Below are positions 31,299 to 46,264 of a stretch of DNA of 64,000 nucleotides, one piece after another (position 1 is the first letter of the stretch; the number at the start of each line of letters is the position of its first letter). The stretch lies in the IMG/VR virus record IMGVR_UViG_3300037462_000828, positions 1-64,000 of that record. The stretch is one strand, 5' to 3'. This DNA comes from a virus. The notes below the pieces were generated by a model, which was given only the letters and a program-made list of their open reading frames with translations, did no database searches and had not been told where the DNA came from. The position numbers were made by a program, and so were the translations under genes.

Positions 31299-31607
31299 TT
31301 ACCAACGGCCCGGGCCGTCCGGCCGTAAGGGGCGTTTGCTAGGCCCGGCGATTTTTCGCCAGAGGGCGCGCAGGCGTCGGGCCGTTCGGCGCCAGAGCCG
31401 GCGCGCGGGCGTGTCCGGGGGCAGCGAGGCGACGAGGCGCTCGACGAGGCCCGGCGGGGGCGCGACGGGCGGTAGGTTCCGAAGCTCGTCTTGCAGACGC
31501 AGGTACGCCGCCCCGCGCTCGGGGTCGGGGTGCGGCGCGCTCGACCCCTGCTGCTGCTCAAGGAGCCACGCGACGTCGTCGCGGTCTTCGTCGCGGGGGC
31601 CGGTCAC
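31299..31607 (-). CDS. small protein resembling an anti-sigma factor N-terminal segment
   Basis: Y..L...L..LP...PPPG..ER..A.L.....RR.W pattern; no membrane or periplasmic part. Confidence 0.4.
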   Translation of the reverse strand: MTGPRDEDRDDVAWLLEQQQGSSAPHPDPERGAAYLRLQDELRNLPPVAPPPGLVERLVASLPPDTPARRLWRRTARRLRALWRKIAGPSKRPLRPDGPGRW

Positions 31608-32293
31608 GCCGCGACCCTCGCGGCGGCGTCGCGCTCGGCGCGCGCTTGCCTGCGTCCTTCGGCCGACTGCTCGCGTAGGCGGGCGGCGAGCGCCTCGCTT
31701 TCGGCGAATACCCCGAGCGATTCGGCAAGGTCGTCGGCCGCGTCGGCCGTCGCTTCGAACGCGCCGGCGAGCGCGCGCAGATCGGCCGCCTCGCCCGGCT
31801 CGGCCTTCGCCGACGCGGCCTTGAGCGCCTCGGCCGCCTCGCAGTAGCGGTCGGTACGCCGTTCGCGCAAGCGCGCGACGCCTTGGCGGGCCAGCGATTT
31901 CACCGCCCCGACCTCGCCGCCGAGCACGCCGAACATGCGGCGGCCGCAGCAGGCGTTGTCCTCGTACTCCTCGGCCTCTTGGTGCCGGAGCGCTTCGACC
32001 GCCGCCGCGTACTCTTTGCGGGCCCGAACGCGCCCCCAGCCCTGGCGGCCGCCGAGCCGAGAGCGGGCGAGCCGCTCGGCCGCGACGGCGGCCAGCGTGT
32101 CGGCGTGGCCCTCGAACTCGCACACGTGCATCTCGGCCTCGGCGTAGTCGCCGAGCAGCGCCGTGCGGGCCTCGGGGGCGAGCGGATCGCCCCGGTCGTA
32201 GAGACGGCTCGCGAGCGCCGTGGCGCGCGCAATCGCCTCGGCGAGGTCGGCGGGTCGGGCGTTCGGGTCGGCGGAAACGTTGGTCGCGGTCAT
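31604..32293 (-). CDS. helical hypothetical protein (early cassette gene)
   Basis: AAGGGG SD; follows hairpin repeat H1. Confidence 0.6.
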   Translation of the reverse strand: MTATNVSADPNARPADLAEAIARATALASRLYDRGDPLAPEARTALLGDYAEAEMHVCEFEGHADTLAAVAAERLARSRLGGRQGWGRVRARKEYAAAVEALRHQEAEEYEDNACCGRRMFGVLGGEVGAVKSLARQGVARLRERRTDRYCEAAEALKAASAKAEPGEAADLRALAGAFEATADAADDLAESLGVFAESEALAARLREQSAEGRRQARAERDAAARVAA

Positions 32294-32329
32294 TGTCCCC
32301 TTGTCTTTCTGGCGGCGTCGGCGCCGCCC

Positions 32330-32372
32330 CTCACGCGGCAAAGCCCCCGGGCGCTTGCGCACGCGGGGGCGG
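32330..32372 (-). repeat. intergenic bulged-hairpin repeat H1 (identical to H6 over 43 bp)
   Basis: CCGCCCCCGCGTGC-GCAA-GCGCCCGGGGGCTTTGCCGCGTGAG on the - strand. Confidence 0.9.
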
Positions 32373-32390
32373 CAGAGGGGCGGGCGTTCG

Positions 32391-32663
32391 TTAGGCAGTC
32401 GAAAATCGGTCGAGCTCGTAGCCGTGCGCCTTCGCGGCCAGTTCGGCGAGTGAGTAAGCTTTTTCTCGCAGGGTCGAGGTGGGCGCGTTCCGGCCGATTT
32501 CGGCGCGGAAGCACGAGTAGAGCCGGCCGCTACCGAGGTAGGTGACCTCGACGATGGCGGAGCGAGCAGAGCGACGCTCGAAGGTGGCCCACGCGAGCAA
32601 ACGAACGGGGGCCGACTTGGGAGCTACGCCGGGGGAGCGGAGGGTTTCGGGGCAGGTCGTCAT
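32391..32663 (-). CDS. small early orphan protein
   Basis: ORF exactly fills the interval between H2 and H1. Confidence 0.55.
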   Translation of the reverse strand: MTTCPETLRSPGVAPKSAPVRLLAWATFERRSARSAIVEVTYLGSGRLYSCFRAEIGRNAPTSTLREKAYSLAELAAKAHGYELDRFSTA

Positions 32664-32671
32664 GTGGGCTT

Positions 32672-32708
32672 CTAACGCCCGAAGCCCCAGGCTTGCGCTC
32701 TGGGGCGG
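32672..32708 (-). repeat. intergenic hairpin repeat H2
   Basis: GCCCCAG-A-GC-GCAA-GC-CTGGGGC-TTCGGGCGTTAG. Confidence 0.85.
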
Positions 32709-32731
32709 GGGCGGCAGGAGAGGTGGTCGAG

Positions 32732-32950
32732 TCACGTTTTGAACGTGATTGCGCGCATTGAGCCGATCCGTTGGCTGCTTCCCCGCCGCACGACGCCACG
32801 CACAGGGAAGCGCACCATGACCTCGGCGCCAGGCTCGAGCCCAAGGAGCCGAGCGTAGTTTTGCGCCGCTTCCTTCGCTTTTTCAGCGGGCGAACGAACC
32901 CAATAGCCGACCCGCGAAACGAGCACTTCAAACGAACGTAGTTGCGCCAT
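32732..32950 (-). CDS. small early orphan protein
   Basis: GGAGG SD; lies between H3 and H2. Confidence 0.6.
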   Translation of the reverse strand: MAQLRSFEVLVSRVGYWVRSPAEKAKEAAQNYARLLGLEPGAEVMVRFPVRGVVRRGSSQRIGSMRAITFKT

Positions 32951-32984
32951 CGTCTCACCCTCCGCTGCGCCCTCGGCGCCGCCT

Positions 32985-33032
32985 CTCACGCGCCGAAGCC
33001 CCAGGCCCGGGGGAGGGCTCTGGGGCTCGGCG
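32985..33032 (-). repeat. intergenic hairpin repeat H3
   Basis: CGCCGAGCCCCAG-A-GCCC-loop-GGGC-CTGGGGCTTCGGCG-CGTGAG. Confidence 0.8.
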
Positions 33033-33045
33033 GATAGCGGGGCGC

Positions 33046-33351
33046 TCAGACGGCGGAGCACTCCCACGCGCCGTAGTAATACGACCCGCTCTCGACGCCG
33101 CGGCGCGAGACGGGGCCGCCGTCGGGAACGAACACGAGCCGGTCGGCCCGCTCTTCGGCGGGGATTTTCGACACTTGGTAGACGTCCAGCCGACGTAGCT
33201 CGATGGTCGACGACGCGTGCAGCGCCAGTGCGGCCGCGTCGAAGGCGGCCTTGCCGAGGCCGGAGGCGGCGCGAATGGCCTTGACTTGGGTCGTCTCGGT
33301 GACCGAGGAGCGGACGGAGCGCAGGGCAGAGAGGACGGCGGCGGTGTTCAT
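33046..33351 (-). CDS. small early protein, first gene after promoter PA
   Basis: ATG 33351 with GAGG; possible winged-helix pattern (IRAASGL.K..FD.A...L). Confidence 0.6.
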   Translation of the reverse strand: MNTAAVLSALRSVRSSVTETTQVKAIRAASGLGKAAFDAAALALHASSTIELRRLDVYQVSKIPAEERADRLVFVPDGGPVSRRGVESGSYYYGAWECSAV

Positions 33352-33371
33352 GGGGCCTCGGTAGTTCTCGC

Positions 33372-33428
33372 CGGCGGTCTCGCCCGCCGACAACTAGAAC
33401 ATACGTCCGAGTGGCGGACTTGTAAAGG
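33372..33428 (-). promoter_or_regulatory. early promoter PA (TTTACA-N17-TATGTT) with operator-like palindrome and 5' stem-loop
   Basis: Member of a six-copy repeat family. Confidence 0.85.
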
Positions 33429-33803
33429 TCAAATCGACATCGGCTCGACCGTCCAGGCGCCCGACGAGTCGGGGGAGGCCTCGGCCGGGTCGGGCGCGGC
33501 GGGCCAGTAGCAGAGGGCGTGGCCGGCGAGGCAGACGGTCGCGGTCGCGCCGGCGCGGGCGAGGGCCCGGGCGGCCGCCATCGCGGCGCCCTCGTCGCCG
33601 CCGGAGGGCTCGACGCGGGGGCGGCCCCCGGGACCGCAAAGCCGAACGGTGTAGGCCGGCGCGGGGGCCGGCGCGGGGCGCCCGAGGCGGCGGGCGAGTC
33701 GTCGTACGAGTGCGAGCATGGTCCCTAGTTCTTCCCGAGCCCGCCCCCTCCCCCGGCGGGCCCTTCCTGCGGTTGCTATACTACGCCCCCCCCCGGGAGC
33801 GCT

Positions 33804-34244
33804 TCAGTCGGCCCAGGCCCGGGCGCCCCACCCCCGGGCGCGCGCGGCCCGCACGAGGGCGGGGATCATCTGCGACCGGGGCGTTACCTTCGGGCCGCGC
33901 TTGCGGTACTGCGGCGATCGCTCTTGCGGGTGCTCGCGGCAGAGCCGCGAGAGCGCGGCGCCGTCGGCGGCGGTCAGCCGGTAGTCGAGCCGCGCGACGT
34001 CGCCGGCCGGGCGGTCGACGGGGTCGAGGGGCCAGCGCTCGGCGGCGGCCGACCGGACGAGCAGCCCGAGCAGGAACGATTCGCTCGCGCCGAGGGCGGC
34101 CGCGAGTTCGGCGAGGCGCCGGCGGTCGCCCGCCTCGAGTTCGCAGGTCGAGTGCGTCTTCGTGCCCTCGCTCGCCGGGGCGCGCGCGCGGCCCCGGCCG
34201 CCGGCTCTCGAGAGGGTTTTCGGGTCGCTTCGGTCGTCGGTCAT
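33804..34244 (-). CDS. tandem ribbon-helix-helix DNA-binding protein (candidate repressor)
   Basis: Two strand-helix-helix units (STCEL..DRRRLAELAAALG.SES.LL; LDYRLT..D...L..L....SQMI..LV). Confidence 0.6.
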   Translation of the reverse strand: MTDDRSDPKTLSRAGGRGRARAPASEGTKTHSTCELEAGDRRRLAELAAALGASESFLLGLLVRSAAAERWPLDPVDRPAGDVARLDYRLTAADGAALSRLCREHPQERSPQYRKRGPKVTPRSQMIPALVRAARARGWGARAWAD

Positions 34245-34274
34245 GATCGGGGGCGGGCCTCCTGCCCGTCGGTC

Positions 34275-34302
34275 AACCTACGCCCCTATGGCGTAGGGTC
34301 AA
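34275..34302 (-). promoter_or_regulatory. promoter PF (TTGACC-N16-TAGGTT) overlapping the perfect palindrome CCTACGCC-N5-GGCGTAGG
   Basis: Read directly; immediately upstream of the RHH gene. Confidence 0.75.
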
Positions 34303-34312
34303 GGCCCCGCCC

Positions 34313-34522
34313 CTAGCGACCGCGGCCGGGCCCGAGCACGAGCGGCATCCGGGCGGCCGCCTCGCGGCGGGCGGCGTTGGCGGCGCGTCGTGCGGCGTCG
34401 GCGCGGCGCGAGGCCTCGAGGCTGCGCATCGCGACGCGGATCGCCTCGGCGCCGAGGTCGAGCTTGGCGAGGGTCGGGGAAGGGGCGGGGAACATGCTGC
34501 TAACGGCGGTACGGGTCGACAT
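34313..34522 (-). CDS. small hypothetical protein
   Basis: ACCCCATG start context shared with other early genes. Confidence 0.5.
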   Translation of the reverse strand: MSTRTAVSSMFPAPSPTLAKLDLGAEAIRVAMRSLEASRRADAARRAANAARREAAARMPLVLGPGRGR

Positions 34523-35102
34523 GGGGTTCGTTGGTCTCAAACCTAACGAACGGCCCGGGCCGCCCGGGCCCGTAGGGGCTAATCGACGAGGGCCGGCGGC
34601 GCCGGGTCGGCCGGGGGCGGCTCGTCGCGGGGGCAACGCCCGGCGCATTGGCCAAAAACGAGCGGGCTGCCCCCGCTCGCGATCCACCGAAGCGGCCCCG
34701 GGTCGCTCTGCCCCCAATGGCTCGGCGGCTTGAGCAGGCACCGGGCGGCGGGCGAGACCAGTTCGAGCCGAAGCCGGTTGCGCGAGCGGCGCACGCCGTC
34801 GAGGCCTTCGGGGTCGGCCGGCTGTACGCGGCTAGGGCACGCGGCGCGGTCGGTCGGGGGCGGCTCGCCCTCGAGAACCTCGCACGCGGCGATCGCGGCG
34901 ATCGCGGCGTCGGGGCCGACGAGGGCGACGAAAAGCTGCGCCGCGCCGAACGCGTCGGCGCCCTCCTCGAGGGTCTCGCCCGAAGGAACGTCGCGCCAGT
35001 CGATGACCGAACCGCGCCCGGCCGTCACGCGCGGGCCGTGAAGCACGGCGCCGGCGAGCAGGTGCCGCGCCGCGCGCCGAACGGCCGCGAAGGTCTCGGC
35101 GC

Positions 35103-35507
35103 TCACGTCGCCGACTCCGAGCGGAGCGTCGGAGGGCAGGGTTCGGACGGGCGCCCCTCGGGGGGCGGCGCGCGCCAGCCGTCGCAAGGGGCGCCGTCCT
35201 CGTAGCGGGCGAGCACGCGCCCCGTGCGACGGTCGAACGCCTCGACGACGCCCGAGCGGTCGAGGCTCTCGGCGAACGCGTCGACGACGACCTCGGCGCG
35301 GCCCTCGTCGGTGCCGGGCCAGCCCCCGTCGAGTTCGACCTTGTAGTCGGTCCCCGCGTCGCCCCCGGTCGTCTCGGTCACGCGCAGGCCGTAGCGCGGA
35401 AGGCGCGCGTAGAGGTCGGCCCGTAGGCTGTCCTCGCGGCTTACCTCGGCGAGGTCGGCGGCCTCGGCCGCGAGGCGCTCGCGCTCGTAGGAAACGGTGC
35501 TTGTCAT
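35103..35507 (-). CDS. early orphan protein
   Basis: AGAAAGACAAGGGGACATG start region shared with the gene starting at 32293; follows H4. Confidence 0.6.
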   Translation of the reverse strand: MTSTVSYERERLAAEAADLAEVSREDSLRADLYARLPRYGLRVTETTGGDAGTDYKVELDGGWPGTDEGRAEVVVDAFAESLDRSGVVEAFDRRTGRVLARYEDGAPCDGWRAPPPEGRPSEPCPPTLRSESAT

Positions 35508-35549
35508 GTCCCCTTGTCTTTCTCTGCGGGTCGGCTTCGGCGCCGACCC

Positions 35550-35594
35550 CTCACGCGGCAATGCCCCCGGGCGCCTTGCGGGGCGCGGGGGCGG
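35550..35594 (-). repeat. intergenic hairpin repeat H4
   Basis: GCCCCCGCGCCCC-GCAA-GGCGCCCGGGGGCATTGCCGCGTGAG. Confidence 0.85.
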
Positions 35595-35599
35595 TCAGG

Positions 35600-35917
35600 T
35601 CAGGCGGCGACGTCGCAACGGAACGCGTCGGCGCCAGAGGTCAGGTGACCGAGAACGGTGCGGCGAATCGCGTCGAACGCCTTGCCGGCCTCCGTGGGCG
35701 GGAACATGTCGGCCCCGCCGGACAGCCCGTACGTCCACCCGCCCGCGCGGTAACGCACCTGCCAGCCCTCGGCGCCGCTCTTGCGGCTGGCGGCGGCGGT
35801 GCGCGTCTGTCGGGCGCAGACGATGAGCACGAAATCGAACCGAGGCATCGCCTTGGCGGCGAGCGCCACATCCCAAACCTTCGCCGAAATCGCCGCCTGA
35901 ATCTCCGCTTTCGTCAT
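35600..35917 (-). CDS. small early protein, first gene after promoter PB
   Basis: AAGGA SD; ORF fills the PB-H4 interval. Confidence 0.65.
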   Translation of the reverse strand: MTKAEIQAAISAKVWDVALAAKAMPRFDFVLIVCARQTRTAAASRKSGAEGWQVRYRAGGWTYGLSGGADMFPPTEAGKAFDAIRRTVLGHLTSGADAFRCDVAA

Positions 35918-35941
35918 GGGGTCTGGTTCCTTTTTGCCGCC

Positions 35942-35995
35942 GGGTCTCGCCCGCCGACAACGAGAACCTACGACCTAGTGTCGTAGTTGTAAAGG
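35942..35995 (-). promoter_or_regulatory. early promoter PB (TTTACA-N17-TAGGTT) with perfect palindrome CTACGAC-N5-GTCGTAG
   Basis: Repeat family member. Confidence 0.88.
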
Positions 35996-36631
35996 CCCGT
36001 CCGGTCGATTATTGCCGAGGGCCTCGGCGGGCGAGCGCCCGAGCCACCAACCCGGCGACGTGCCGTCGGGCCGGTAGAGGGCCATGACGTCGGCGAAGAT
36101 GGGCGTAGGTACGAGCCCCCCGACGGTCTCCCAATCGCCGCGGCGGGCGGCCTCGCGCACGGCGGTCGAACTCGCGGCCGGGGGCTGAGGCAGGTGAAAA
36201 TACCGATAGCCCTTGCGCCCAACGATGATCGGCGGGGCGAGCGCGCAGAGTTCGGCCCAGTAGGCCTCGCCCCAGGTCGGCCCCCGCTCGTACGTGTCGG
36301 CGCCGACCGCGAACCGAAGGGCCCAGTCGGTGTGCTCGGCGAGCAAGTGCTTGACCGTGCGGAGCGTCAGGCTCTCGCCGCCGAGCCGGCCCTCGACGTC
36401 GCTCACCTCGGCGCGGGGCACCCAAGCGAAGGCCTTGCGGGCCATCGCGAGGCGGGCCTCGAAGGGGGCGAGGCTCTTGCCGGCCTGCTGGTAGCACGGC
36501 ACGACGAGCACGCGGTCGACCTCGCCCGAGAGGGCGATGCTCGCGGCGGCGACGACGTGCCCGACGTGGGTCGGGTCGAGTGAGCCGCCGTAGAGGGCGA
36601 CGCGCGTCGGGCGGGGAGAGGGGGGCGTCAT
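35975..36631 (-). CDS. nadD: nicotinate/nicotinamide mononucleotide adenylyltransferase (NadD-like)
   Basis: LYGGSLDPTHVGH (HxGH), T.RT..L, VGAD and SSTAVR motifs in NadD order. Confidence 0.85.
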   Translation of the reverse strand: MTPPSPRPTRVALYGGSLDPTHVGHVVAAASIALSGEVDRVLVVPCYQQAGKSLAPFEARLAMARKAFAWVPRAEVSDVEGRLGGESLTLRTVKHLLAEHTDWALRFAVGADTYERGPTWGEAYWAELCALAPPIIVGRKGYRYFHLPQPPAASSTAVREAARRGDWETVGGLVPTPIFADVMALYRPDGTSPGWWLGRSPAEALGNNRPDGPLQLRH

Positions 36632-37004
36632 GGCCGGAGCCTGGCGCGCCGCCGGGGCGGGCCGCGCGCCGGGGGCCGCTACCGCGCGGCGCCGAGGCAC
36701 CACGCGACGAGCCGGTCGTGCTCCTCGGCGGCGGGCCCCTCGATCGAGACCGTACGCGCGAGCGCGTCGGCGGCCGCCCCCGGGGGCGCGCCGTCTCCGC
36801 CGCCGAAGCGCTTGGTCGACGGCGGCTCGTCCTCGCCCCCGGCCGGCGGGGGGTCGGAGCGGGGCGCCGCCGGGAAGGCCTGGCGGTAGGGCCCCGGCGG
36901 GGGGTCGGAGCGGGGCGCCGCAGGCCGAGGCCGGGCCCGCGGTGGCTTGGCGGCGCCGAGGCCGCACAGGGCCGCGAGGGCGGCGAGGGGCGAACGGCGC
37001 ACGG

Positions 37005-37643
37005 CTACGCCCCCTCGGCCGGCGCGGGCGGCAGGTTGCAGATGACGACGTAGGCCCGAACGGGGTGCTTGGTCTTGAGGTTTCGAAACCCAATCATCGC
37101 GCGCCGGAAAACGTCGCGGTCGACCGAAACGTCGACGCGCCAGCCGGCGGCGTCGTCGCTTTGAAAGACGAGCCGCGCGCGCCGGCGCCACGAAGCGCCA
37201 TGGCACGCGCCGAAGTCGTAGTCGGGCTCGCGCGCCTCGACGAGCGTAAAGGGTTCGGCCGCATCGCCTCGTTCGCCCGCAACGCTTGCGAACCGCGCGA
37301 GGGCCCCGGCGAGCGCCCCCGACTGCTCGGCCGACGATAGGGCGGTGGCGGCAAGCGCGAGCGGCCGCGCGTCCTCGGCCTCGCGGCACCGGGCCTCGAA
37401 ATAGGAGGCCTTGGTCGCGAGCAGCCAGACGAGCACGCGGTCGCCGACGCCCGCGGCCGTATCGGTCGGCTCGACGGCGAAGCGCTCGACGTGGTCGGGC
37501 CACCAGCGGGGGCACGCGACGCGGAGCGCCCAATGGTCGACCGGGTCGCGCTCGACGGTAAAATCTGCGGCCCGCACGTCGGTGCGCGTCGGCCGGGCGG
37601 AAAGCACGCGGTCGACGACGAGGTCGGCGAAGGTCTTGGCCAT
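37005..37643 (-). CDS. hypothetical protein
   Basis: ATG coupled to the upstream stop codon. Confidence 0.55.
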   Translation of the reverse strand: MAKTFADLVVDRVLSARPTRTDVRAADFTVERDPVDHWALRVACPRWWPDHVERFAVEPTDTAAGVGDRVLVWLLATKASYFEARCREAEDARPLALAATALSSAEQSGALAGALARFASVAGERGDAAEPFTLVEAREPDYDFGACHGASWRRRARLVFQSDDAAGWRVDVSVDRDVFRRAMIGFRNLKTKHPVRAYVVICNLPPAPAEGA

Positions 37644-38332
37644 CAGCCGACCCCGAGAAGCGCGATCGACGCGCCGTAGCGGCGCACGGCCTCGGAGCAA
37701 CCGTCGCGGTCGTCGGCGATGCGCGCGCGGAGCACGCGGCGCAGGCCCTCGAGGTCGGCGGCGAGCCCGATCGGGCGGTTGTCGACGCAGAATACCTCGC
37801 GCTCGGCGCCAGACAAAAACGTCGCGCCGATCGACGAAGGCCGGACGAAAAAGCCGACCGTCGGGCCGTCGCGCTCGATGCTTAGGGCGAGGTCGGGACG
37901 CTTGGCGAGCCCGGGGGCGAAGGCGAGTTTTGCCGCCTCGAGAAGGCGGCCGGTCTTGTACGGGTCGAGGGGGGCCTGGTCGTCGGTCATGGTTGGTTTC
38001 TCCGCCGAGGGGTACGGCCCGCCTCGGCCGGCGCGTAAGGGCTTTTTCGGGAAGGGCAGCGGAATCGTTCGGGCGGCGGGGTCGCCGGGCGGGGCGCCCT
38101 CGGCCATCGCGTCGAGCGCGTCGGCGAGGGCGTCGTCCTCGGTGTCGAAGAGGTCGGGCCGCCCGCGCCCCGTCGGCAAACTGCGGGCGTGGGCGCCGAC
38201 GAGAAGCTGCCCGAGGCGCAGCGCGGGACAGGCGAGCCACGCGGCGAGCAGGGCCTCGACGACGAGGCGCTTTTGCGCGGGCTCGGCGGCGCGCCCCGGG
38301 GGCGGCCCGGGGAAGTGGCGCGGCGGGCTCAT
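37643..38332 (-). CDS. hypothetical protein (possibly two in-frame genes; second start at ATG 37990)
   Basis: AW..CP.LRLGQL motif in the N-terminal half; GGAG SD before the internal ATG. Confidence 0.5.
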   Translation of the reverse strand: MSPPRHFPGPPPGRAAEPAQKRLVVEALLAAWLACPALRLGQLLVGAHARSLPTGRGRPDLFDTEDDALADALDAMAEGAPPGDPAARTIPLPFPKKPLRAGRGGPYPSAEKPTMTDDQAPLDPYKTGRLLEAAKLAFAPGLAKRPDLALSIERDGPTVGFFVRPSSIGATFLSGAEREVFCVDNRPIGLAADLEGLRRVLRARIADDRDGCSEAVRRYGASIALLGVG

Positions 38333-39431: not shown

Positions 39432-39692
39432 GACTTGAACCTCACCCTTTCGTTGACGGCCGCGAGCACGCTCGCGACCAGCGGCCAGAACCCGCGCGCG
39501 GGGTAGGCCATGACCTCGAACCGTTCGTCGACGCCGGTGACCAGGCACCGGCCGCGGCACGCCTGGGGCATCGCCTCGCCCGGGTCGCGCGCGCCGACGC
39601 CCTCGATTTCGGCCTCGCCGAGCACTTCGTCGAGGGCCTCGACGCCGCCGGGCCGCAGAATGACTTTGACGATGATCATCTCGCGTGGCCTT

Positions 39693-40613: not shown

Positions 40614-40860
40614 TCGGGCGCGCCGACGTTCTTGCACTGCTCGGTTCGCTCGCGCTCGACCTCTTCGAGCGCGCCGCGGGCGCAGCGCAGGGCGGTCTTG
40701 AGCCGGTCGACGGCCAGGCGGGCGCGCTTGACGCGTTCGGCGGCGCTCGGGTGAACGCGCTTGTGCGTTCGGTTGACGACGTCTAGATCGCGGCTCGCCA
40801 AGAACGCCGCGCTGGCCGCGCGACCGGCGAGTTCCGACGCGTTTGGGTTCGGGTCTGGTT

Positions 40861-41649
40861 TCACGCAGCCTTCTTTCTCGAGGCCTTGGGCTTCGGGGCG
40901 CGCTTGGCTTTCGGCTCGGCCGGGCGCGCGACCCGATCGGCGAGCACCTCGTGCGGGGCGACGACGATGACCTTGACGCGCGCGCCGAAGTGCGCCGCGT
41001 CGACGCGGCGGATCGGGTTGAACCCGGCGATGCGTCGGTCGTCGGGAAACGCCCACCCGTTGAGCCCGTCCCCGATCGCCTTGAACACGTTGTCGAGATC
41101 GGCGTTGTCGGCGGCAAGCGTTACGTCGGCCTCGACGAAGTAGCGCGCGCGGGGGTCACGCCAGCCGCCGGGGGGCCAGCCCGAGAAGGCCATCGCGGCG
41201 GCGGCCGACGCGCGCACGGCGGCCTCGTAGTCGAGCGTGCGCTTCGGCGTGTAGGTGAGCGACCCGCCGCGCACGACCCGCGGGCGCTCTTTGGCGACGG
41301 GGCGCGCCTCGACGACGAAGTCGAGCGTGGCCAATCCCAGGCCGAGAGCACGGGCTTGCTTGTGGAGGCCGGCGCGCTCGTAGGTCGGGGCCCAGTCGCC
41401 GAGCGGCCAGGCGAACCGAGGATCGGTCGACGCGCGCAGGGCGGGCACGCCGGGCGGCGGGGCGGGCTTGGCTGGCCGGCGTCGTCGCTTGCCATTCGCG
41501 CCGCCCTTGCGGGCCCGCGGCGGCCCCTTGGCAGGCGCCGCCTTGGCCGGACGGGCCGGAGGGCGGCCGCCGGTCAAGAGGGCCGCGGCGGCGTCGCCGT
41601 GGCTCTTGCGCACGGCCTCGACGAGATGAAGGGAAGGTGGGCGCCTCAC
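40861..41649 (-). CDS. rusA: RusA-like Holliday junction resolvase with basic N-terminal extension
   Basis: P..KERPR...YTPK.T..YE and DLDNVFKAIGDGLN...DD motifs. Confidence 0.85.
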   Translation of the reverse strand: MRRPPSLHLVEAVRKSHGDAAAALLTGGRPPARPAKAAPAKGPPRARKGGANGKRRRRPAKPAPPPGVPALRASTDPRFAWPLGDWAPTYERAGLHKQARALGLGLATLDFVVEARPVAKERPRVVRGGSLTYTPKRTLDYEAAVRASAAAAMAFSGWPPGGWRDPRARYFVEADVTLAADNADLDNVFKAIGDGLNGWAFPDDRRIAGFNPIRRVDAAHFGARVKVIVVAPHEVLADRVARPAEPKAKRAPKPKASRKKAA

Positions 41650-42152
41650 GGCCGGCGCCCCCGAGCCGCCGACACAAAAACGGGGCTGGCCGCGCGTCGC
41701 TTTTCGTCGTCGATGCGCCGGCCCTGGCGCGCTCGGTAGTTGAGGCGCTCGATCAGCCGGTCGAGTTCGGCCACGCCTTCGAGCACGTCGGCGAGTCGGA
41801 CCTTGCCGCCGTGCTTGTCGTCGGCGTCGACGTCTCTTAGCCGGTGCCCCATCATCTCGAGCCACGCCCCCGTAGGCAGGCCGTCGGCGAGGGCGAAGAT
41901 CTCCTCGAGTACGGCGGCGTCGACCGGGACCGTCGGACGGCCGAGGAACGGGTCGGCGATGATTTCGCGCAGGCCAGGAGGGTAGAGCTCGGCCTCGGCC
42001 TCGCGCGCGAGGTGCCGTACCTGGGCCATCGTCTCGGGCTTCGGCTGCGGGCCGGGCGGCGAGACCCGGCCCACGCCGTGGCAGACGTCGCAAGGCACCT
42101 CGGCCTTGTGACCTTTGCCGCCGCAAAACTGGCAAGCGACGAGGGCGGTCAC
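41646..42152 (-). CDS. hypothetical protein with DnaJ-type Zn finger
   Basis: CQFCGGKG...CDVCHGVG. Confidence 0.6.
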   Translation of the reverse strand: MTALVACQFCGGKGHKAEVPCDVCHGVGRVSPPGPQPKPETMAQVRHLAREAEAELYPPGLREIIADPFLGRPTVPVDAAVLEEIFALADGLPTGAWLEMMGHRLRDVDADDKHGGKVRLADVLEGVAELDRLIERLNYRARQGRRIDDEKRRAASPVFVSAARGRRP

Positions 42153-42399
42153 GACAGCCTCCGGTTTGCCCGGTAGACGATCCACCGGCGGTGCCGAGAC
42201 GAGCCGCCCTCCCAAAACGGGTAGCTCATCGCGTCGATCCAGTGCACCGACGCCCACTCGGCCCGGCCCCGTAGCCGGCGCTTCGCCGCGGCCAAGGCCG
42301 ACCGGAAGCGACGGTACACGCGCGGCAGCGTCGCGCCGTCGACGGCGACGCGCCAGCGGCCAAGGCCGCGGCGCGAGCACGAGAGTTTCGCGCGGCCGC

Positions 42400-42615
42400 T
42401 CATGCGGGCACCGCCGAGACTTCGCAGAGGCGCGCCCGGCGATCGCGGGCTCGGCGCACGATCTGGCAGATGCGGGCCGCCGTTACCCCGAGTTCGGCCG
42501 CCACCTCGACCTGTTTCTTGCCGCCCTCGACGGCGGCGAGAACGCGCGCGTCGCGCTCGATCGCCTCGGCGACGGTCGACGGGCGCGGGCAGGCCATGCT
42601 GAGGGGCGCGCTCAT
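42400..42615 (-). CDS. small HTH protein (sigma region 4-like)
   Basis: G.KQ.EVAAELGVT..RI.QI helix-turn-helix. Confidence 0.75.
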   Translation of the reverse strand: MSAPLSMACPRPSTVAEAIERDARVLAAVEGGKKQVEVAAELGVTAARICQIVRRARDRRARLCEVSAVPA

Positions 42616-43120
42616 CGGACGACCTCGTAGACAACGGCGCCGCCGGCGGTGCGCTCGCCGCGGCAGGTCGACCCGCACGGGACGACGCGGCCCGGGCCGC
42701 GCGGGGGGCGCAGCCGCGACTCGACGGCGCTTAGCCAAACGCCGCCGCCCGCGTCCTCGTAGAGGTTGCGCGGCGCGCTCGGGCTCGACGCCCGAAGGCG
42801 CCCCCCGGACGGGGGGAGTCGTAGCCCCCGGGCCCTCGGGCAACGTAGAACCGCGGCGCCTCGGCGCCCCTTCTCGCTCTCGACCATATCGACCGCTCCT
42901 TTGCCGGCGCGCCCGCGCGCGCCCTCCGGTAAGGGTGACGGCCGACCGGGGGCGGCGCGTAAGGGCGCAAGCGCCCGGGCACCGACGAAACTCTACGGCC
43001 CGGCGGGTCGCTCGCCTCGCCGCCGGCCGAAGGGGGCCGGGCTCGGCGGCGGACGACAAAACGCCGACGCCCCGAGTCAGCGCTCGGGGCGTCGCGCAGG
43101 CGGCGGTGTCTCCCGGGCCG

Positions 43121-43522
43121 CTAGCCCGGGCTTGAGACGAGGGGCGTGACGTCGATCGTCGGCGCGTCGTGGTCGTCGTCGGGCTCGTCGGTCGTGCGGA
43201 ACGGCGGCGGCGCGATCGCGTTTGCCGCGGCGTGAAGCGGCGAGAGCCCGCAAAACGTGCGCTCGTTGCGCGGCACGTCGTCGTCATGGCGCCCGACCGT
43301 AATCGACGGTGACTTGGCGCGCGCCTCGGCGATGAGGGCGTCGCTCTGCCGCGAGAGCCGGGCGGCGCGCGCCGCTTCGGCCTCTGCCAGTTTGCGCCAC
43401 CAGCGCGCCTCGCCCCGGGCGAAGAGCAGCGCGCGCTCGGCGGCGACGCGCCGGCGGCGGTCGTCGAGCACGACGGCGAAAAGACCCCAGAGCACGAAAA
43501 ACGCAAGGCCGACGTAGATCAT
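43121..43522 (-). CDS. membrane-anchored hypothetical protein
   Basis: N-terminal TM helix followed by a coiled-coil. Confidence 0.55.
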   Translation of the reverse strand: MIYVGLAFFVLWGLFAVVLDDRRRRVAAERALLFARGEARWWRKLAEAEAARAARLSRQSDALIAEARAKSPSITVGRHDDDVPRNERTFCGLSPLHAAANAIAPPPFRTTDEPDDDHDAPTIDVTPLVSSPG

Positions 43523-43607
43523 GGTTCCCAACCTTCCCTCTTGCGGGGGCGCCGAGCGCGCCCGCGTCTTTTGCCAACGGCCGCGCGGCGCGGCCCCTAA
43601 GTGCGTC

Positions 43608-43886
43608 TCAGCGATCGGCCTCGACGGCCGCGAGGGCCGCCTCGCGCGTCGGGTAGTACCCGTTTTTCGACCCGGGCAGATTGTCGTAGGCGTGGTGCGG
43701 GCACGGGCTGCCGCCGCCCCCGAAGAACTCGGCGCGCCAGGCGCCGACGAACAGCCCGTCGGCGGACGAGACGACCCAGTACGTTCGGCCGTCGGCGCGG
43801 GCGTAGACCTCGCCGGTTGACCAGTCGCGGAAGACCTTCGTGCCGGACGCGGGCGCCGACGCGTGGTCGCATTTCGTTGCCTTCAT
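43608..43886 (-). CDS. small early orphan protein
   Basis: ATG abuts the 3' end of hairpin H5. Confidence 0.6.
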   Translation of the reverse strand: MKATKCDHASAPASGTKVFRDWSTGEVYARADGRTYWVVSSADGLFVGAWRAEFFGGGGSPCPHHAYDNLPGSKNGYYPTREAALAAVEADR

Positions 43887-43936
43887 AACGCCCGAAGCCC
43901 CCGGGCGCCGGTCAAGGCACGCGGGGGCCGGGCGTC
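43887..43936 (-). repeat. intergenic hairpin repeat H5
   Basis: GACGCCCG-GCCCCCGCGTGCC-loop-GGCGCCCGGGGGC-TT-CGGGCGTT. Confidence 0.85.
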
Positions 43937-43948
43937 GGGCGGGATCGG

Positions 43949-44248
43949 TCAGAAGGCCTTGCCCTCGACGATAAGGATCGTTTCGTCGGCGACCCGGTCA
44001 ACTTCCTCGGCGAGGTCGCTCCCGTCGGCCTCGACGGAGCCGCACGGGTGCACGACCAACTCGCCCACCGTCGGGCCGTCCGCTCCCTCTTTGCGAAGCA
44101 AAACCGCGAAGCGAGGCGACCGGGCGGCGCGCGCGTCGGCCTCGGGGTCCCAGCCGACGCGCGCGGTGGCGCCGATCTTGGCGGCGGCGAGCACAACGGC
44201 GATGAGGCTATCTTTGGCGACGCGGGTAGGCTTGGAAACGGTCGACAT
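43949..44248 (-). CDS. small early orphan protein
   Basis: AGGAG SD. Confidence 0.65.
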   Translation of the reverse strand: MSTVSKPTRVAKDSLIAVVLAAAKIGATARVGWDPEADARAARSPRFAVLLRKEGADGPTVGELVVHPCGSVEADGSDLAEEVDRVADETILIVEGKAF

Positions 44249-44287
44249 GGGGGTCTATCTCCTGCGCGGTTCGGGGGGGGTGTCGGT

Positions 44288-44455
44288 TCAGGTCAGGCCG
44301 GGGTCGTAGGCGGAGACCCACGCGTCGGCGCCGGCTTCGTCCCACGGTCGGCCGAGAAAGGCCGCGTCGCGCTCCGTCCGGTAGGCGCCGAGGGCCTCGG
44401 CCTCTTCGGGCGACTCGCGGTGGCTCACGTCGTCAATCGGGTCGTAGGTCGTCAC
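44288..44455 (-). CDS. small acidic protein, first gene after promoter PC
   Basis: GTG start; D/E-rich, 55 aa. Confidence 0.5.
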   Translation of the reverse strand: MTTYDPIDDVSHRESPEEAEALGAYRTERDAAFLGRPWDEAGADAWVSAYDPGLT

Positions 44456-44481
44456 GGTCGGCTGCTCGTTCGGTTCGTCGG

Positions 44482-44535
44482 GGGTCTTGCCCGCCGACAA
44501 CCAAAACCTACGACCGAGTGCCGTACTTGTAAAGG
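44482..44535 (-). promoter_or_regulatory. early promoter PC (TTTACA-N17-TAGGTT) with operator and 5' stem-loop
   Basis: Repeat family member. Confidence 0.88.
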
Positions 44536-44622
44536 GGGCGCCCGTGCGATTGTTGCGGCGAGGCTTCTTTCGGCCCTGGCGTCGCTACCGCGTCGAGGCG
44601 ATTCCCGGGCCGGCGAGCGAGG

Positions 44623-45066
44623 TCAAGGGCTGGGCGTCTCGCCCCCGCCCCCGGTATCCCAACCAAGCAAGAACCGCCCGACAGGAGGGCGGGGCGGGAC
44701 GACTACCTGCCGCAGTTCCCACTCGGGCGCGGCCGTAACGTCGATCTGGTCGACGACCTGACGGGCGATCTCGCCCGCCTCCCTCAGGTAGATCGTGGCA
44801 TCGAAGCGCAGCCATATGGCCCTCTCGGGCCCCAGCCTGGGGAGAGAGAGACGGGCGATCGATCGGTCGGCCCAGCCGACACGCCGAGTAGCGTCGGCCA
44901 ACTTCTCGATCGCCCAGGCCCTCGCCGGCCCGGTCTCCCGGCCGCGCACCTCGCGTTCCAGAGATGCCGCAGAGCACCTCGCGAGGTGCTCTTGGGCACA
45001 CTCGATCATTCCCGCGGCGTGGAGCCGCAACTCCCAAATCTCCGGCCAGTTCTTGTCGTGTTGCAT
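44623..45066 (-). CDS. hypothetical protein
   Basis: AGGAG SD before ATG. Confidence 0.55.
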   Translation of the reverse strand: MQHDKNWPEIWELRLHAAGMIECAQEHLARCSAASLEREVRGRETGPARAWAIEKLADATRRVGWADRSIARLSLPRLGPERAIWLRFDATIYLREAGEIARQVVDQIDVTAAPEWELRQVVVPPRPPVGRFLLGWDTGGGGETPSP

Positions 45067-45177
45067 CTTCTCTCCTCGCCGGCATCGCCGGCATCGCCGG
45101 ATGTCGTGGTTGCGGCCGAGCCGCGCCGTCGAGGCCCCACGCGGGGGCGCCGGCGGCGGGGAGCGCCCGCGCTCGGG

Positions 45178-45723
45178 TCAGCCGAGGCGGGGGATCAGCG
45201 CGTTGACCGACTCCCACACCAGCGCGGCCGGGGCGTAAAAACGCACGGGCTCGCCGACCGAGCCCCGACGGCGGTCGACCCGCACGCCGGCGTCGCGCAG
45301 GGCGACGAGCAGGGCGCGCGAGTGGCTCGCCGCGTCGCGGGCGGCGTAGTCGATCGCGTCCGATAGGCTCGGCGTCGACGCGCCCCACGGCGCTTGCTCC
45401 TTCAGCCCGCACCACGCGGCGATCTCGGGCCACTCGGCCCAGCCGCGGCCGGCGCGCCAACGGCCGGCGAGGACAACGAGCGTGTACGCGAGGCCGAGCC
45501 CCTCGTAGTCGACGCCGCCTCGGCCGGGCCCGAGGTCGGCGAGGGCGTCGCCGTCGTCGGTCGCGTGGTAGTCGTCGACCGTGCAGATAAAAAAGTCGTT
45601 GACGCACCCGGTGTCGCGCAAGGCGATCATCGCCTCGGCGCGCTCGGCGGCCGAGGCCGGGCGGCCCTCTCGGATGTGGGTCAGGGGAACGTCGCGCCAG
45701 CTGGGGTTCTTGGTCTTCGGCAT
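45178..45723 (-). CDS. early orphan protein
   Basis: Start lies just downstream of H6. Confidence 0.65.
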   Translation of the reverse strand: MPKTKNPSWRDVPLTHIREGRPASAAERAEAMIALRDTGCVNDFFICTVDDYHATDDGDALADLGPGRGGVDYEGLGLAYTLVVLAGRWRAGRGWAEWPEIAAWCGLKEQAPWGASTPSLSDAIDYAARDAASHSRALLVALRDAGVRVDRRRGSVGEPVRFYAPAALVWESVNALIPRLG

Positions 45724-45733
45724 GGGGTGGTCT

Positions 45734-45776
45734 CTCACGCGGCAAAGCCCCCGGGCGCTTGCGCACGCGGGGGCGG
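45734..45776 (-). repeat. intergenic hairpin repeat H6 (identical to H1)
   Basis: 43/43 match to 32330-32372. Confidence 0.9.
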
Positions 45777-45793
45777 TTCAAAGGGTCGGGCGG

Positions 45794-45961
45794 CTATTGC
45801 GCGCGTGTAAAAAGAACGATGTTGTCGAGCCGCGTGACGGCTCGCCAGGGCTTCGGGGTCTGCCCAGGATAGCCACGGAACCGGCGAAGCGTTGGGCGTG
45901 CCTGCAAAATTATGCCGGCGTCCGCGTCGTGCCAAACCAAAAGCCGAGTCGTTCGCTTCAT
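45794..45961 (-). CDS. small basic early protein (55 aa)
   Basis: GGAGGGTAAGACGATG start context nearly identical to that of the gene starting at 32950. Confidence 0.65.
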   Translation of the reverse strand: MKRTTRLLVWHDADAGIILQARPTLRRFRGYPGQTPKPWRAVTRLDNIVLFTRAQ

Positions 45962-45993
45962 CGTCTTACCCTCCGAAGCGCCATCGGGCGCCC

Positions 45994-46036
45994 CTAACGC
46001 CCGAAGCCCCAGGCTTTCGCTCTGTGGCGGGGCGTC
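45994..46036 (-). repeat. intergenic hairpin repeat H7
   Basis: GACGCCCC-GCCACAG-A-GC-GAAA-GC-CTGGGGC-TTCGGGCGTTAG. Confidence 0.85.
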
Positions 46037-46059
46037 GGTCGGGCCCCCCGGCCCGCCTT

Positions 46060-46182
46060 TCAGAAGTCGTCGTCTTCGTCGGCGTCGTAGGTCCCGAGGC
46101 CCTGAAGGCTCTCGTCGAGGGCCTTCCAAGCCTCGATCTCTTTGAGGCTCTTTTCGGCGCGTTCTTTTTCGGAGGCGTTCAT
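46060..46182 (-). CDS. 40-aa acidic peptide MNASEKERAEKSLKEIEAWKALDESLQGLGTYDADEDDDF (not in the ORF track)
   Basis: Manual translation; purine-rich upstream region and ACCCCATG context; first ORF after promoter PD. Confidence 0.7.
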   Translation of the reverse strand: MNASEKERAEKSLKEIEAWKALDESLQGLGTYDADEDDDF

Positions 46183-46207
46183 GGGGTCGGTCTCTTTCGT
46201 TCGGCGG

Positions 46208-46264
46208 CGGCGGTCTCGCCCGCCGACAACGAGAACCTACGACCGAGTGGCGTACTTGTAAAGG
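46208..46264 (-). promoter_or_regulatory. early promoter PD (TTTACA-N17-TAGGTT) with operator and 5' stem-loop
   Basis: Repeat family member. Confidence 0.88.

Follow-up and report, generated by a model that had tools for sequence, protein, structure and literature searches.

Promoter heads and promoter-less hairpin modules in the ORFan arrays of a high-GC myovirus-like phage, and their possible role in gene exchange

Promoter-early stem-loops (PeSLs) have been described in the T4-type phages RB49/phi1, T4/PST and KVP40/nt-1 as conserved intergenic composites of about 100 bp with a sigma70-like promoter, a stem-loop that often lies between the -35 and -10 elements, and a 3' Shine-Dalgarno sequence and start codon, and their terminator activity, promoter activity and mini-circles have been shown (Arbiol et al. 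2010, PMC2839356; Comeau et al. 2014, PMC4122927). In Cluster K mycobacteriophages, the start-associated sequence (SAS), GGGATAGGAGCCC, is conserved before unrelated genes and about half of its copies have an inverted repeat upstream; for the repeats of the extended SAS (ESAS), RNA pairing was not supported and the authors favoured DNA binding (Pope et al. 2011, PMC3203893). Lambdoid morons are extra genes of deviant composition that lie between conserved genes and are bracketed by regulatory signals (PMC2839356).

We analysed a window of 64,000 nucleotides from the 111.7-kb record (72% GC; completeness 87%) of an uncultured, myovirus-like phage and found four promoter heads and seven hairpin modules, termed H, with arrays of small genes. 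The analogy with PeSLs drawn by the first-pass annotation holds for the four heads, while H is a second, promoter-less kind of element. As with PeSLs, ORFans are flanked in hyperplastic regions, and close relatives insert, delete or replace an ORF between cassettes, replacement being seen here in the contigs L098 and L111. Unlike PeSLs, the present elements belong to a 72% GC non-T4 myovirus with polycistronic genes, most junctions (7-8) are promoter-less H modules whose hairpin is not inside a promoter and whose tail bears the ribosome binding site (RBS), and the predicted promoter heads have an extra 5' leader hairpin. SAS resembles H as an asymmetric, conserved, Shine-Dalgarno-containing motif a few nucleotides upstream of start codons, in one orientation, in the non-structural part only of a high-GC phage genome and absent from host genomes; however, the two sequences differ, the H stems covary as RNA helices, and cassette replacement is not reported at SAS sites (PMC3203893). 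The cassette genes share with morons their deviant base composition and their insertion between conserved genes, but morons have their own promoter and terminator without conserved flanking linkers, whereas here the flanks are conserved and the genes appear to be co-transcribed.

The early polycistron made by the host RNA polymerase in T7 and T3 also contains intercistronic hairpins, the RNase III signals R0.3-R1.3, which are built of two stems, upper and lower, with an internal loop between them, span about two helical turns and leave a protective 3' hairpin on the upstream message after cleavage. These sites are not known to be linked to gene shuffling. H, as read from the genome, is likewise an intercistronic hairpin with upper stem, internal loop and lower stem, except that one of its two classes (class A) has 11 bp and no lower stem.

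Layout of the heads and arrays

Four minus-strand units share one layout, with a head, small genes and H between the cistrons, just as the first-pass annotation had described (Table 1). The genes that it listed are present, but the arrays are longer, with D4 and C4 added and, in the PA array, A5 and a gene at 31060-30380, through which the PA operon probably runs on to the terminator at 30294-30279. The heads form a 60-nt repeat family with 78-92% identity (33369-33428, 35936-35995, 44476-44535 and 46205-46264) and follow one design, in which TTTACA-N17-TAGGTT, whose spacer contains a palindrome, precedes a 5' leader hairpin and a start region; judged from these motifs, the promoter is predicted to be of the sigma70 type. 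In PA, the -35 element is TTTACA (33426-33421), the -10 element is TATGTT (33403-33398), the 17-nt spacer contains the palindrome GTCCG..CGGAC, and the leader hairpin is GUCGGCGG-GCGAGA-CCGCCGGC (33391-33370). PB has TTTACA-N17-TAGGTT with a perfect 7-bp spacer palindrome, CTACGAC..GTCGTAG, and the leader hairpin of PC is GUCGGCGGG-CAAGA-CCCCCGAC. Three related promoters without leader hairpin or H arrays were observed at 34302 and 52654 in the window and at 90828 beyond it; position 84662 on the + strand gave a fourth, looser match.

The cassette genes are unrelated orphans, as had been proposed: blastp revealed no paralogy, and the ten cassette proteins tested had no match in Pfam and PHROG. 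Those adjoining class B modules have a GC content of 0.59-0.68 versus 0.72. In a search of 5.8 billion proteins, D3 matched nothing but its own 90% cluster. Genes for RecA, RecT or a tyrosine recombinase were not found in the 87%-complete record.

Table 1. Features of the four arrays (hairpin energies in kcal/mol)
Feature	Coordinates	Strand	Remarks
Head PA	33352..33426	-	start region up to ATG 33351
PA array genes	31299..33351	-	A1 to A5
A1	33351-33046	-	101 aa
H3	32986..33026	-	class B/intermediate; hairpin 33026-32998, -23.0; tail UUCGGCGCGUGA; 3' of it second hairpin and RBS module GGAGGGUGAGACG, 32985-32951
A2	32950-32732	-	72 aa, GC 0.61
H2	32673..32706	-	class B; hairpin GCCCCAG-A-GC GCAA GC-CUGGGGC; tail UUCGGGCGUUA; ATG 9 nt past tail
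A3	32663-32391	-	90 aa, GC 0.66
H1	32331..32370	-	class A; C.C mismatch, GCAA loop, -22.5; tail UUUGCCGCGUGA; 3' of it second hairpin and RBS module AGAAAGACAAGGGGACA, 32330-32294
A4	32293-31604	-	229 aa
A5	31607-31299	-	102 aa
Degenerate eighth H-like element	31061..31096	-	GCGGAAAACCGCGGCCCCGGGCUUUUCCGCGUC; directly before ATG 31060; R1 E 0.08
Head PB	35918..35993	-	leader hairpin; start region up to ATG 35917
PB array genes	34313..35917	-	B1 to B4
B1	35917-35600	-	105 aa
H4	35551..35592	-	class A; hairpin -21.9; tail AUUGCCGCGUGA; 3' of it second hairpin GGGUCGGC..GCCGACCC and RBS module as after H1, 35550-35508
B2	35507-35103	-	134 aa
B3	35187-34579	-	
B4	34522-34313	-	
Head PC	44456..44533	-	promoter, leader hairpin; start region up to GTG 44455
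PC array genes	43065..44455	-	C1 to C4 and terminal hairpin
C1	44455-44288	-	55 aa
C2	44248-43949	-	99 aa
H5	43886..43928	-	class A stem, class B tail; hairpin -25.1; tail UUCGGGCGUUAUG
C3	43886-43608	-	92 aa
C4	43522-43121	-	133 aa
PC array end	43094-43065	-	12-bp hairpin and GCGUUUUG
Head PD	46183..46262	-	promoter, leader hairpin; start region up to ATG 46182
PD array genes	44623..46182	-	D1 to D4
D1	46182-46060	-	40 aa, GC 0.59
H7	45995..46028	-	class B; hairpin GCCACAG-A-GC GAAA GC-CUGGGGC, -10.0; tail UUCGGGCGUUA; 3' of it second hairpin and RBS module GGAGGGUAAGACG, 45994-45962
D2	45961-45794	-	55 aa, GC 0.61; slot replaced in relatives
H6	45735..45774	-	class A; tail into GAGAGA, 7 nt, ATG 45723
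D3	45723-45178	-	181 aa
D4	45066-44623	-	147 aa

Structure and covariation of the H modules

All seven H copies are intergenic, on the minus strand and within the four arrays. The GC-rich hairpin starts 7-31 nt past the upstream stop codon and is followed by a conserved, single-stranded tail of 11-12 nt, UUYGSS(G)CGUKA, and then by a purine-rich G-R-R-G stretch. When we searched for the tail pattern GGGGCWTYGSS(N)CGTKA, seven matches were found in the window versus 0.03 expected, none of 100 shuffles reached seven, and the whole 111.7-kb genome had no match outside the seven copies. Class A has a helix of 11 bp in total without an outer or lower stem, while in class B an asymmetric internal loop separates the upper stem from a lower one of 5-7 bp; the outer stem of H2 is formed by upstream CGCCC and tail GGGCG, and that of H7 is GACGCCC/GGGCGUU. 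The stem defect, a C.C mismatch or a bulged A, is conserved, but the mismatch that had been assigned to H4 is better drawn as a CC bulge and H7 has an extra A.G mismatch. GNRA loops, also noted earlier, are present in H1, H2, H6, H7 and arguably H4, but not in H3 and H5. We could reproduce the identity of H1 and H6 over 43 nt (32330-32372 and 45734-45776) and the paired start regions after H1/H4 and after H3/H7. H1 is a mosaic module, equal to H6 in its 5' part and to H4 in its 3' part, and the modules look homogenised within genomes.

The view of H as a real structured family is supported. Covariance model R1, built from class A copies only, finds all seven H including the three class B copies (E 8e-5 to 3e-3), and its genome search gave nothing beyond the seven at E <= 1. 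In the alignment, 97.5% of cells pair versus 84.8% in shuffles, counts that are inflated because the alignment was fitted to the model. Compensatory double changes occur in 6 of the 11 pairs (e.g. C-G to A-U and G-C to U-A), the observed covariation score was reached in 0 of 500 shuffles, and slid controls stayed at or below 62%. G.U pairs, possible in the sense RNA only, are also present in the stems. Folding Z-scores of the whole intergenic regions were modest (-0.5 to -3.9), and the Rfam search that had been proposed earlier showed that the family is absent from Rfam. The H hairpins have energies of -10 to -25 kcal/mol with only 2-3 U in the next 8 nt, while the operon-end hairpins at 30294 and 43094 are followed by 4-5 U. 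The 3' tail is conserved as claimed, but it is not a separate RNA module: it supplies the gene that follows with its spacer and Shine-Dalgarno region, so that H consists of a hairpin plus a translation-initiation region. In H5, the tail (..GCGTTATG) even provides the AUG of C3.

Gene replacement in relatives

The prediction that relatives carry different genes between conserved modules was borne out in two short metagenome contigs, L098 and L111 (1.3 and 1.05 kb), with breakpoints at the edges of the P and H modules. L098 has 85% identity over 46877-45986 and 88% over 45777-45571, and an unrelated 71-aa gene replaces D2 between H7' and H6'; the homology ends at ...GGGCGTTA and restarts 3 nt before the H6 hairpin. 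L111 shows 88% identity up to the PA start codon and then the unrelated genes X1, X2 and X3, with a hybrid H (H2 hairpin joined to the H3 RBS module) and a class A H between them, and in this contig the class B outer stem is weakened without compensation. At the protein level, cluster member P0003 has an N-terminal extension of 94 aa, which implies a third allele upstream of H6-D3. Metagenome assemblers can mis-join at repeats of 40-50 nt, and the assignment to the same slot therefore rests on contig integrity and one protein-level hint. D3 occurs at 91-99% identity in three other contigs, which indicates that genes downstream of H are maintained. In distant records (G002 and G004), H-type arrays carry the same tail, each 7-9 nt before ATG, and the tail is kept near letter for letter in the unrelated G002, G004 and G001.

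Possible roles of the modules

Since the class B outer stem can be weakened and class A has none, the near-exact tail asks for a sequence-specific reader. H might be the site of such a factor, a host RNase or a phage translational repressor, which would be compatible with a shuffling role and which we regard as unlikely. RNase III would act on the two-stem class B, or RNase E between GC and UUU just 3' of the hairpin, and cleavage of the polycistronic early RNA would yield stable monocistronic messages, as at the early RNase III sites of T7. The class B architecture, the conserved stem defect, the confinement of the modules to arrays and the tail sequence kept beyond structure in unrelated records argue for a factor, whereas the class A helix, without a lower stem, is too short for canonical RNase III. 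A repressor would silence all the cassette genes at once, in the manner of T4 RegA or of the role proposed for Cluster K SAS/ESAS. In an ESM-atlas feature search, D3 was nearest to RegA-type translational repressors at 0.86-0.87, a weak lead to its putative function under the tool threshold of 0.9; however, its predicted structure (pLDDT 43.6) was unusable and PF01818 (RegA) had no match anywhere in the genome. The genome search for an antisense or guide-like copy of the tail elsewhere was also negative, which argues against a factor.

It is very doubtful that H copies are weak intrinsic terminators or attenuators spread by duplication, with an incidental position at exchange points. Any intergenic repeat would then do, and turnover would proceed by illegitimate recombination as with morons. 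Each GC-rich H hairpin indeed has UUU or UUC directly 3' of it, the true terminators of this phage also have CCCCC..GGGGG stems, and the low-GC inserted genes are moron-like. However, the U-tract is short, and promoter-less genes conserved by relatives come after each H, so H is not an efficient terminator; in addition, conservation reaches 12-17 nt past the stem into the RBS, the L098 and L111 breakpoints coincide with module edges on both sides, and mosaic modules such as the L111 hybrid, with their homogenised look, do not fit. An action on DNA is highly improbable, whether H is taken as a stoperator-like half-site for a phage repressor binding the TACGNC-N5-GNCGTA palindromes of the promoter spacers, with the RHH protein encoded at 33804-34244 as candidate, or as an integron-like site of a site-specific recombinase. 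The tail GGGCGTTAGG resembles the right operator half and -10, GGGCGTAGGT, at promoter 34302, but with a one-base insertion and as only one half-site. All copies have one orientation relative to transcription, as stoperators do, and promoter-less ORFs between imperfect palindromes recall attC arrays; against this, no tyrosine recombinase was found in the 87%-complete record, the sequences contain no R''/R' core sites, and an RNA helix is indicated by the compensatory changes together with the G.U pairs.

We suggest that the promoter heads and promoter-less H linkers probably organise polycistronic ORFan arrays, presumably expressed early, and serve as homology patches for gene exchange, an explanation that names no sequence-specific reader for the tail. 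The first-pass annotation had named RNA processing, stabilising or antitermination as candidate roles of the hairpins and host takeover or anti-defence as putative functions of the genes. At the RNA level, the hairpin most likely acts as an insulator between adjacent cistrons: where processing or partial termination has taken place, it would shield the 3' end of the upstream message, and it would place the next ribosome site just 3' of a fixed structure. On DNA, the conserved modules of 40-90 bp would be patches at which homologous recombination, either between relatives that infect the same cell or among the copies of a single genome, may swap the gene between two modules and leave the expression of the neighbouring genes undisturbed.

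Anatomy and base pairing of the intergenic modules

Reading of the window sequence bore out the positions that the first-pass annotation had given for all elements, and repeat comparison did the same for its observation that a 43-nt stretch is identical in the modules H1 and H6. Every H module is composed of a hairpin and a tail (UUUGCCGCGUGA, UUCGGCGCGUGA or UUCGGGCGUUA), is encoded on the minus strand, and separates a stop codon from the following start. The tail pattern occurs seven times in the window compared with an expectation of 0.03, a count reached in none of 100 shuffles, and was found nowhere else in the 111,726-bp genome. The main hairpin is 23-32 nt long (-10 to -25 kcal/mol). 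In class A modules the stem is GCCCCCG-C-...-C-CGGGGGC with a C.C mismatch (H1, H5, and H6), which is replaced by a CC bulge in H4, and in class B modules (H2, H3, and H7) it is GCCCCAG-A-..-CUGGGGC with a bulged A. The class B copies have an outer stem of 5-7 bp, in which GGGCG of the tail pairs with CGCCC located 5' of the hairpin, while no consistent outer stem was found in class A. Since H3 is intermediate between the two classes, they form one family.

The tail runs on into GAGAGA, GAGAGG, AGGAGG, or AGAAG. An ATG follows this Shine-Dalgarno-like end after 5-9 nt in H2, H6, the H6 counterpart of the metagenome relative L098 (H6'), and copies in two other phage records (G004 and G002), and the ATG lies inside the tail (GCGUUAUG) in H5, the H7 counterpart of L098 (H7'), and one G002 copy. 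Since the tail continues in this manner to a Shine-Dalgarno-like stretch and an ATG, it is, as judged from sequence, the stretch that supplies the following gene with its spacer and Shine-Dalgarno region, which is a new point. The H1/H4 and H3/H7 pairs carry an inserted second hairpin together with a second ribosome-binding site, and the arms of these hairpins differ with their pairing kept. An eighth, degenerate H-like element lies directly before the ATG of a gene, and in this copy an A-run further upstream forms base pairs with the U-rich tail (GCGGAAAA...UUUUCCGC). A protein-coding interpretation of H (GTG start in the tail, an ATGA end for the upstream ORFs, or read-through as far as a tail stop) was rejected, as the frames are inconsistent among copies and the stem indels would break any frame. 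A trans-acting guide, antisense RNA, or ribozyme arm was also rejected, as the genome holds no complementary copy of the tail elsewhere.

The proposal that H forms a structured RNA family was upheld by covariation in a model-based alignment. A covariance model (R1) trained on the class A copies alone recovered the class B copies H2, H3, and H7 with E values from 8e-5 to 3e-3 and had no other match in the genome at E <= 1. In the alignment of 26 matches from the window, its relatives, and other phages, standard pairs fill 97.5% of the cells compared with 84.8% in shuffles, a percentage that is inflated because the alignment is fitted to the model. Two-sided changes were observed at 6 of 11 pairs, the covariation score was reached by none of 500 shuffles, and pairing fell to 33-62% when the partner was slid by 1-3 columns. 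Compensatory changes are visible by eye, namely C-G/A-U at pair 6 and G-C/U-A at pair 7, besides inner stems that differ entirely. An RNA helix is favoured because G.U pairs are present in the sense strand (e.g. GUGC/GCGC in H1, H5, and H6). No Rfam match reached the gathering score in the whole genome, and the two matches at E <= 1 over 30-47 kb were at chance level. A hairpin listing of the whole genome was uninformative at 72% GC. Elsewhere in the genome, a bidirectional terminator-like hairpin (CCCCGGGG..CCCGGGG) has a U6 tract on the minus strand and a plus-strand tail (CTTCGCGCGTCGA) that resembles the H3 tail; R1 gives it no score at E <= 1.

Promoter heads, cassette genes, and genomic setting

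The record (111,726 bp, 72% GC) is rated 87% complete and encodes a tail sheath, a baseplate wedge protein, a tape-measure protein, and a DnaB-type helicase. Close relatives were found neither in INPHARED using blastn and tblastn nor in IMG/VR using proteins adjoining the arrays. All four arrays sit within a minus-strand block of nucleotide-metabolism and DNA genes from about 52.6 to 25 kb, which includes a cytidylyltransferase-like protein, dNMP kinase, Dam methylase, RusA, HNH, DUF488, and DUF5131. Searches of the record for RecA and RecT family genes gave no match. ARAGORN called a tRNA-Arg(GCG) inside the tail-sheath gene, which is probably a false positive.

The four promoter heads PA-PD form a 60-nt repeat family with 78-92% identity. 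Each head contains TTTACA, a 17-nt spacer with a 5-8-bp palindrome (CTACGAC-ACTAG-GTCGTAG in PB), and then TAGGTT or TATGTT. A leader hairpin starts six nt after the -10 element, and its 5' arm GUCGGCGGG is invariant while its 3' arm varies (CCGCCGGC or CCCCCGAC) with pairing kept. Three promoters of this type are without the leader hairpin, and a looser match was found at 84662. A palindrome of approximately TACGNC-N5-GNCGTA is present in the spacer of every head-type promoter. The longest, perfect one (CCTACGCC-ATAG-GGGCGTAGG) precedes a 146-aa gene for which no Pfam match was found.

Positions of promoters, genes, and other elements (window positions unless marked genome)
Feature	Position	Strand	Remark
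Head-type promoter	33398-33426		
Head-type promoter	34275-34302		no leader hairpin
Head-type promoter	35965-35993		
Head-type promoter	44505-44533		
Head-type promoter	46234-46262		
Head-type promoter	52627-52654		no leader hairpin
Head-type promoter	90800-90828 (genome)		no leader hairpin
Eighth H-like element	31061-31096	-	degenerate
Gene after eighth element	31060-30380		
146-aa gene	33804-34244		
A3	32391-32663		low GC
A2	32732-32950		low GC
D4	44623-45066		low GC
D3	45178-45723	-	181 aa
D2	45794-45961		low GC
D1	46060-46182	-	40 aa; low GC
Terminator-like hairpin	102089-102111 (genome)		bidirectional
tRNA-Arg(GCG) call	4060-4145	-	
Tail-sheath gene	2830-4242	+	

The cassette genes had been described as unrelated orphans, and we found no resemblance among the 19 array proteins and no Pfam or PHROG match for the ten cassette proteins tested. 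Among 5.8 billion proteins, D3 had no match outside its own 90% cluster, and a feature search of a protein atlas with A4 gave no usable match. The genes A2, A3, D2, D1, and D4, all on the minus strand, have a GC content of 0.59-0.68 compared with 0.72 for the genome, which suggests from composition that they are of recent foreign origin; the cassette genes that adjoin class B modules fall in this range. D1 ends in ...YDADEDDDF, where the acidic tip and an aromatic residue resemble the C-terminal tail found in bacterial SSB. Its last 22 residues are identical in L098, and it may be an SSB-tail mimic. The label 'host-takeover or anti-defence' for the cassette genes is conjecture.

Gene replacement in relatives and occurrence in other phages

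The 90%-identity clusters of D3, C3, B2, and the gene at 37643-38332 include members on other contigs. A 19-mer of the promoter heads gave no match in IMG/VR and 51 loci in metagenomes, two of which are true relatives. In these two short contigs, L098 (1312 bp) and L111 (1050 bp), different genes were indeed present between conserved modules, at the D2 slot and in place of A1-A3, respectively. L098 is 85% identical to 46877-45986, spanning the HNH end, PD, D1, and H7, and 88% identical to 45777-45571, spanning H6 and the first part of D3. Between these two stretches lie 232 nt that match nothing in the genome and encode an unrelated 71-aa protein, which replaces D2 between H7' and H6'; the homology stops at ...GGGCGTTA and picks up again 3 nt ahead of the H6 hairpin. 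In L111, identity to 33352-33609 is 88% as far as the PA start codon. Past its own head (PA'), L111 carries X1 (99 aa), an H module, X2 (61 aa, GC 0.61), a class A H module, and a third unrelated ORF, and A1-A3 are thus replaced both past PA' and between H modules. The first of these H modules combines an exact H2 hairpin with an H3-type ribosome-binding module, and no homologues of X1, X2, or the third ORF were found in the window's genome. The replacement genes Y of L098 and X2 are low-GC too. In addition, a member of the D3 cluster (P0003) lengthens D3 by 94 residues, of which the last 11 are translated H6 tail; since the remainder has no match here, a third allele at the D2 slot is implied.

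When their sequences are compared, the H and head modules are mosaic and look homogenised within lineages. Besides the identity of H1 and H6 in the window, the second H module of L111 (L111-Hb) and H6' of L098 share inner-stem changes relative to H1/H6, and the PD leader of L098 bears the 3' arm of the window PC. D3 is 91-99% identical in three contigs; a dN/dS estimate over 43 D3 codons comes from too small a sample, and that of the HNH gene is invalid because of indels. This HNH endonuclease gene lies immediately upstream of PD, the head of the most variable array, and its DNA is about 85% identical between L098 1-600 and window 46273-46877, with indels in the N-terminal half.

When IMG/VR was scanned for the 16-mer of class B, the 18-mer of class A, and a 15-mer, TTGCCGCGTGAGAGG, most matches were due to chance, and genuine H-like copies were observed only in G001, G002, and G004, which have almost no proteins in common with this phage in the record parts compared. 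G002 (IMGVR_UViG_3300035695_000001) is a 162.8-kb DTR phage for which no protein in common was detected in the parts compared, and in which the region at 147.6-150.6 kb (loci L174, L176, and L184) contains a 1.3-kb ORF-free leader and then four H-type modules in a row (148.9-150.6 kb; tails UUUGCCGCGUGAGAGG, UUGACCGCGUGAGAGG, UUGCGGCGUUAGGAGG, and AUGCCGCGUUGUGAGG), preceding genes of 188, 192, 89, and 325 aa. G004 has H pairs at 8.1/8.5 kb and 57.7/58.0 kb, with exact H3 and H1 tails among them, and G001 has one H-type module. A host repeat of the REP/MITE type was rejected, since the class A 18-mer occurs 23 times in 185,579 prokaryote species genomes, as chance matches only and never behind a CCCC..GGGG hairpin.

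Functional readings and comparison with known systems

The best-supported reading of the H modules is a function at two levels, as an RNA insulator or protector and as a DNA linker. At the RNA level, the hairpin would insulate cistrons from each other and protect 3' ends, sitting just 5' of an ordinary ribosome site, and possibly serve as an attenuator or processing site. At the DNA level, the modules on either side of a gene would be linkers through which that gene is homologously exchanged.

The hairpins are unlikely to be efficient intrinsic terminators, because each H is followed by conserved genes that lack a promoter; moreover, the 8 nt past the hairpin contain only 2-3 U, compared with at least 4-5 U in a canonical U-tract and 4-5 past 30294 and 43094, where the PA and PC units end, and none of the seven modules is in the terminator scan list. 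Readings at the DNA level, as an operator or an integron-like element, are weak, since the pairing obeys RNA rules, the tyrosine recombinase family PF00589 is absent from the record, and, unlike in integron attC arrays, no consistent R''/R' cores (RYYYAAC...GTTRRRY) flank the hairpins. A sequence-specific reader of H is a serious rival because the tail is conserved, and it is compatible with the two-level function. Such a reader could be RNase III acting on class B, RNase E acting at GC|UUU, or a translational regulator of the RegA/SAS type. RNase III sites of the T7 early type are interrupted helices of about 20 bp with an internal loop; class B modules have 9 + 5-7 bp with an internal loop, and class A only 11 bp. 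The sole hint of a phage-encoded reader is the resemblance of D3 to T4 RegA-type translational repressors, which came nearest to it when features of a protein language model were searched, although their scores (0.86-0.87) fall short of the lead threshold. Neither Pfam nor a PDB sequence search supports this assignment, nor does the failed AlphaFold model (pLDDT 43.6).

A further and rather improbable extension is that a dedicated trans-acting factor common to several unrelated high-GC phages uses the tail as its address. This phage translational repressor or endoribonuclease would switch the entire cassette regulon off or cut it to single messages, with the module as a portable 'socket'. The factor would perhaps be array-encoded, with D3 as a weak RegA-like lead. 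If true, phage lineages would be exchanging a plug-in system that works at the RNA level and has no promoter, and any incoming ORF would be expressed and regulated at once via the 'socket'.

The analogy to the promoter-early stem-loops (PeSL) of T4-type phages, drawn in the first-pass annotation, holds for the four heads and fails at the promoter for the H modules. The heads have a sigma70-like promoter (TTTACA-N17-TAGGTT/TATGTT) in a repeated intergenic element and, as in PeSL, a palindrome between -35 and -10, and an ORFan is replaced between two cassettes in the short contigs L098 and L111. However, neither a regular expression nor a promoter scan found a -35/-10 pair in the seven H modules. 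H is therefore a different module that is PeSL-like in its evolution. For PeSL, promoter and terminator activity as well as mini-circles have been demonstrated. Module mosaicism, homogenisation, and low-GC cassettes are the pattern reported for PeSL-mediated modular shuffling (PMC2839356, PMC4122927). H also resembles the start-associated sequences (SAS/ESAS; PMC3203893) in position and composition, with the Shine-Dalgarno-like tail end 5-9 nt before the ATG in the copies named above, but its repeats covary as RNA, and its motif differs from the 13-bp SAS motif (GGGATAGGAGCCC) located 3-8 bp upstream of the start in Cluster K mycobacteriophages.

Most descriptions of PeSL-type shuffling concern AT-rich T4-like phages, in which each cassette has its own promoter. 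Here the same logic is found in an unrelated 72% GC myovirus, together with a second, promoter-less module of an RNA hairpin and a ribosome site that is backed by covariation and by gene replacement in relatives, and the tail of which recurs in otherwise unrelated phage records. The H module thus provides a concrete motif for asking how phages keep newly gained ORFans expressed within operons, and shows where to seek accessory genes that are hypervariable, and that possibly serve in counter-defence, among uncultured high-GC phages.
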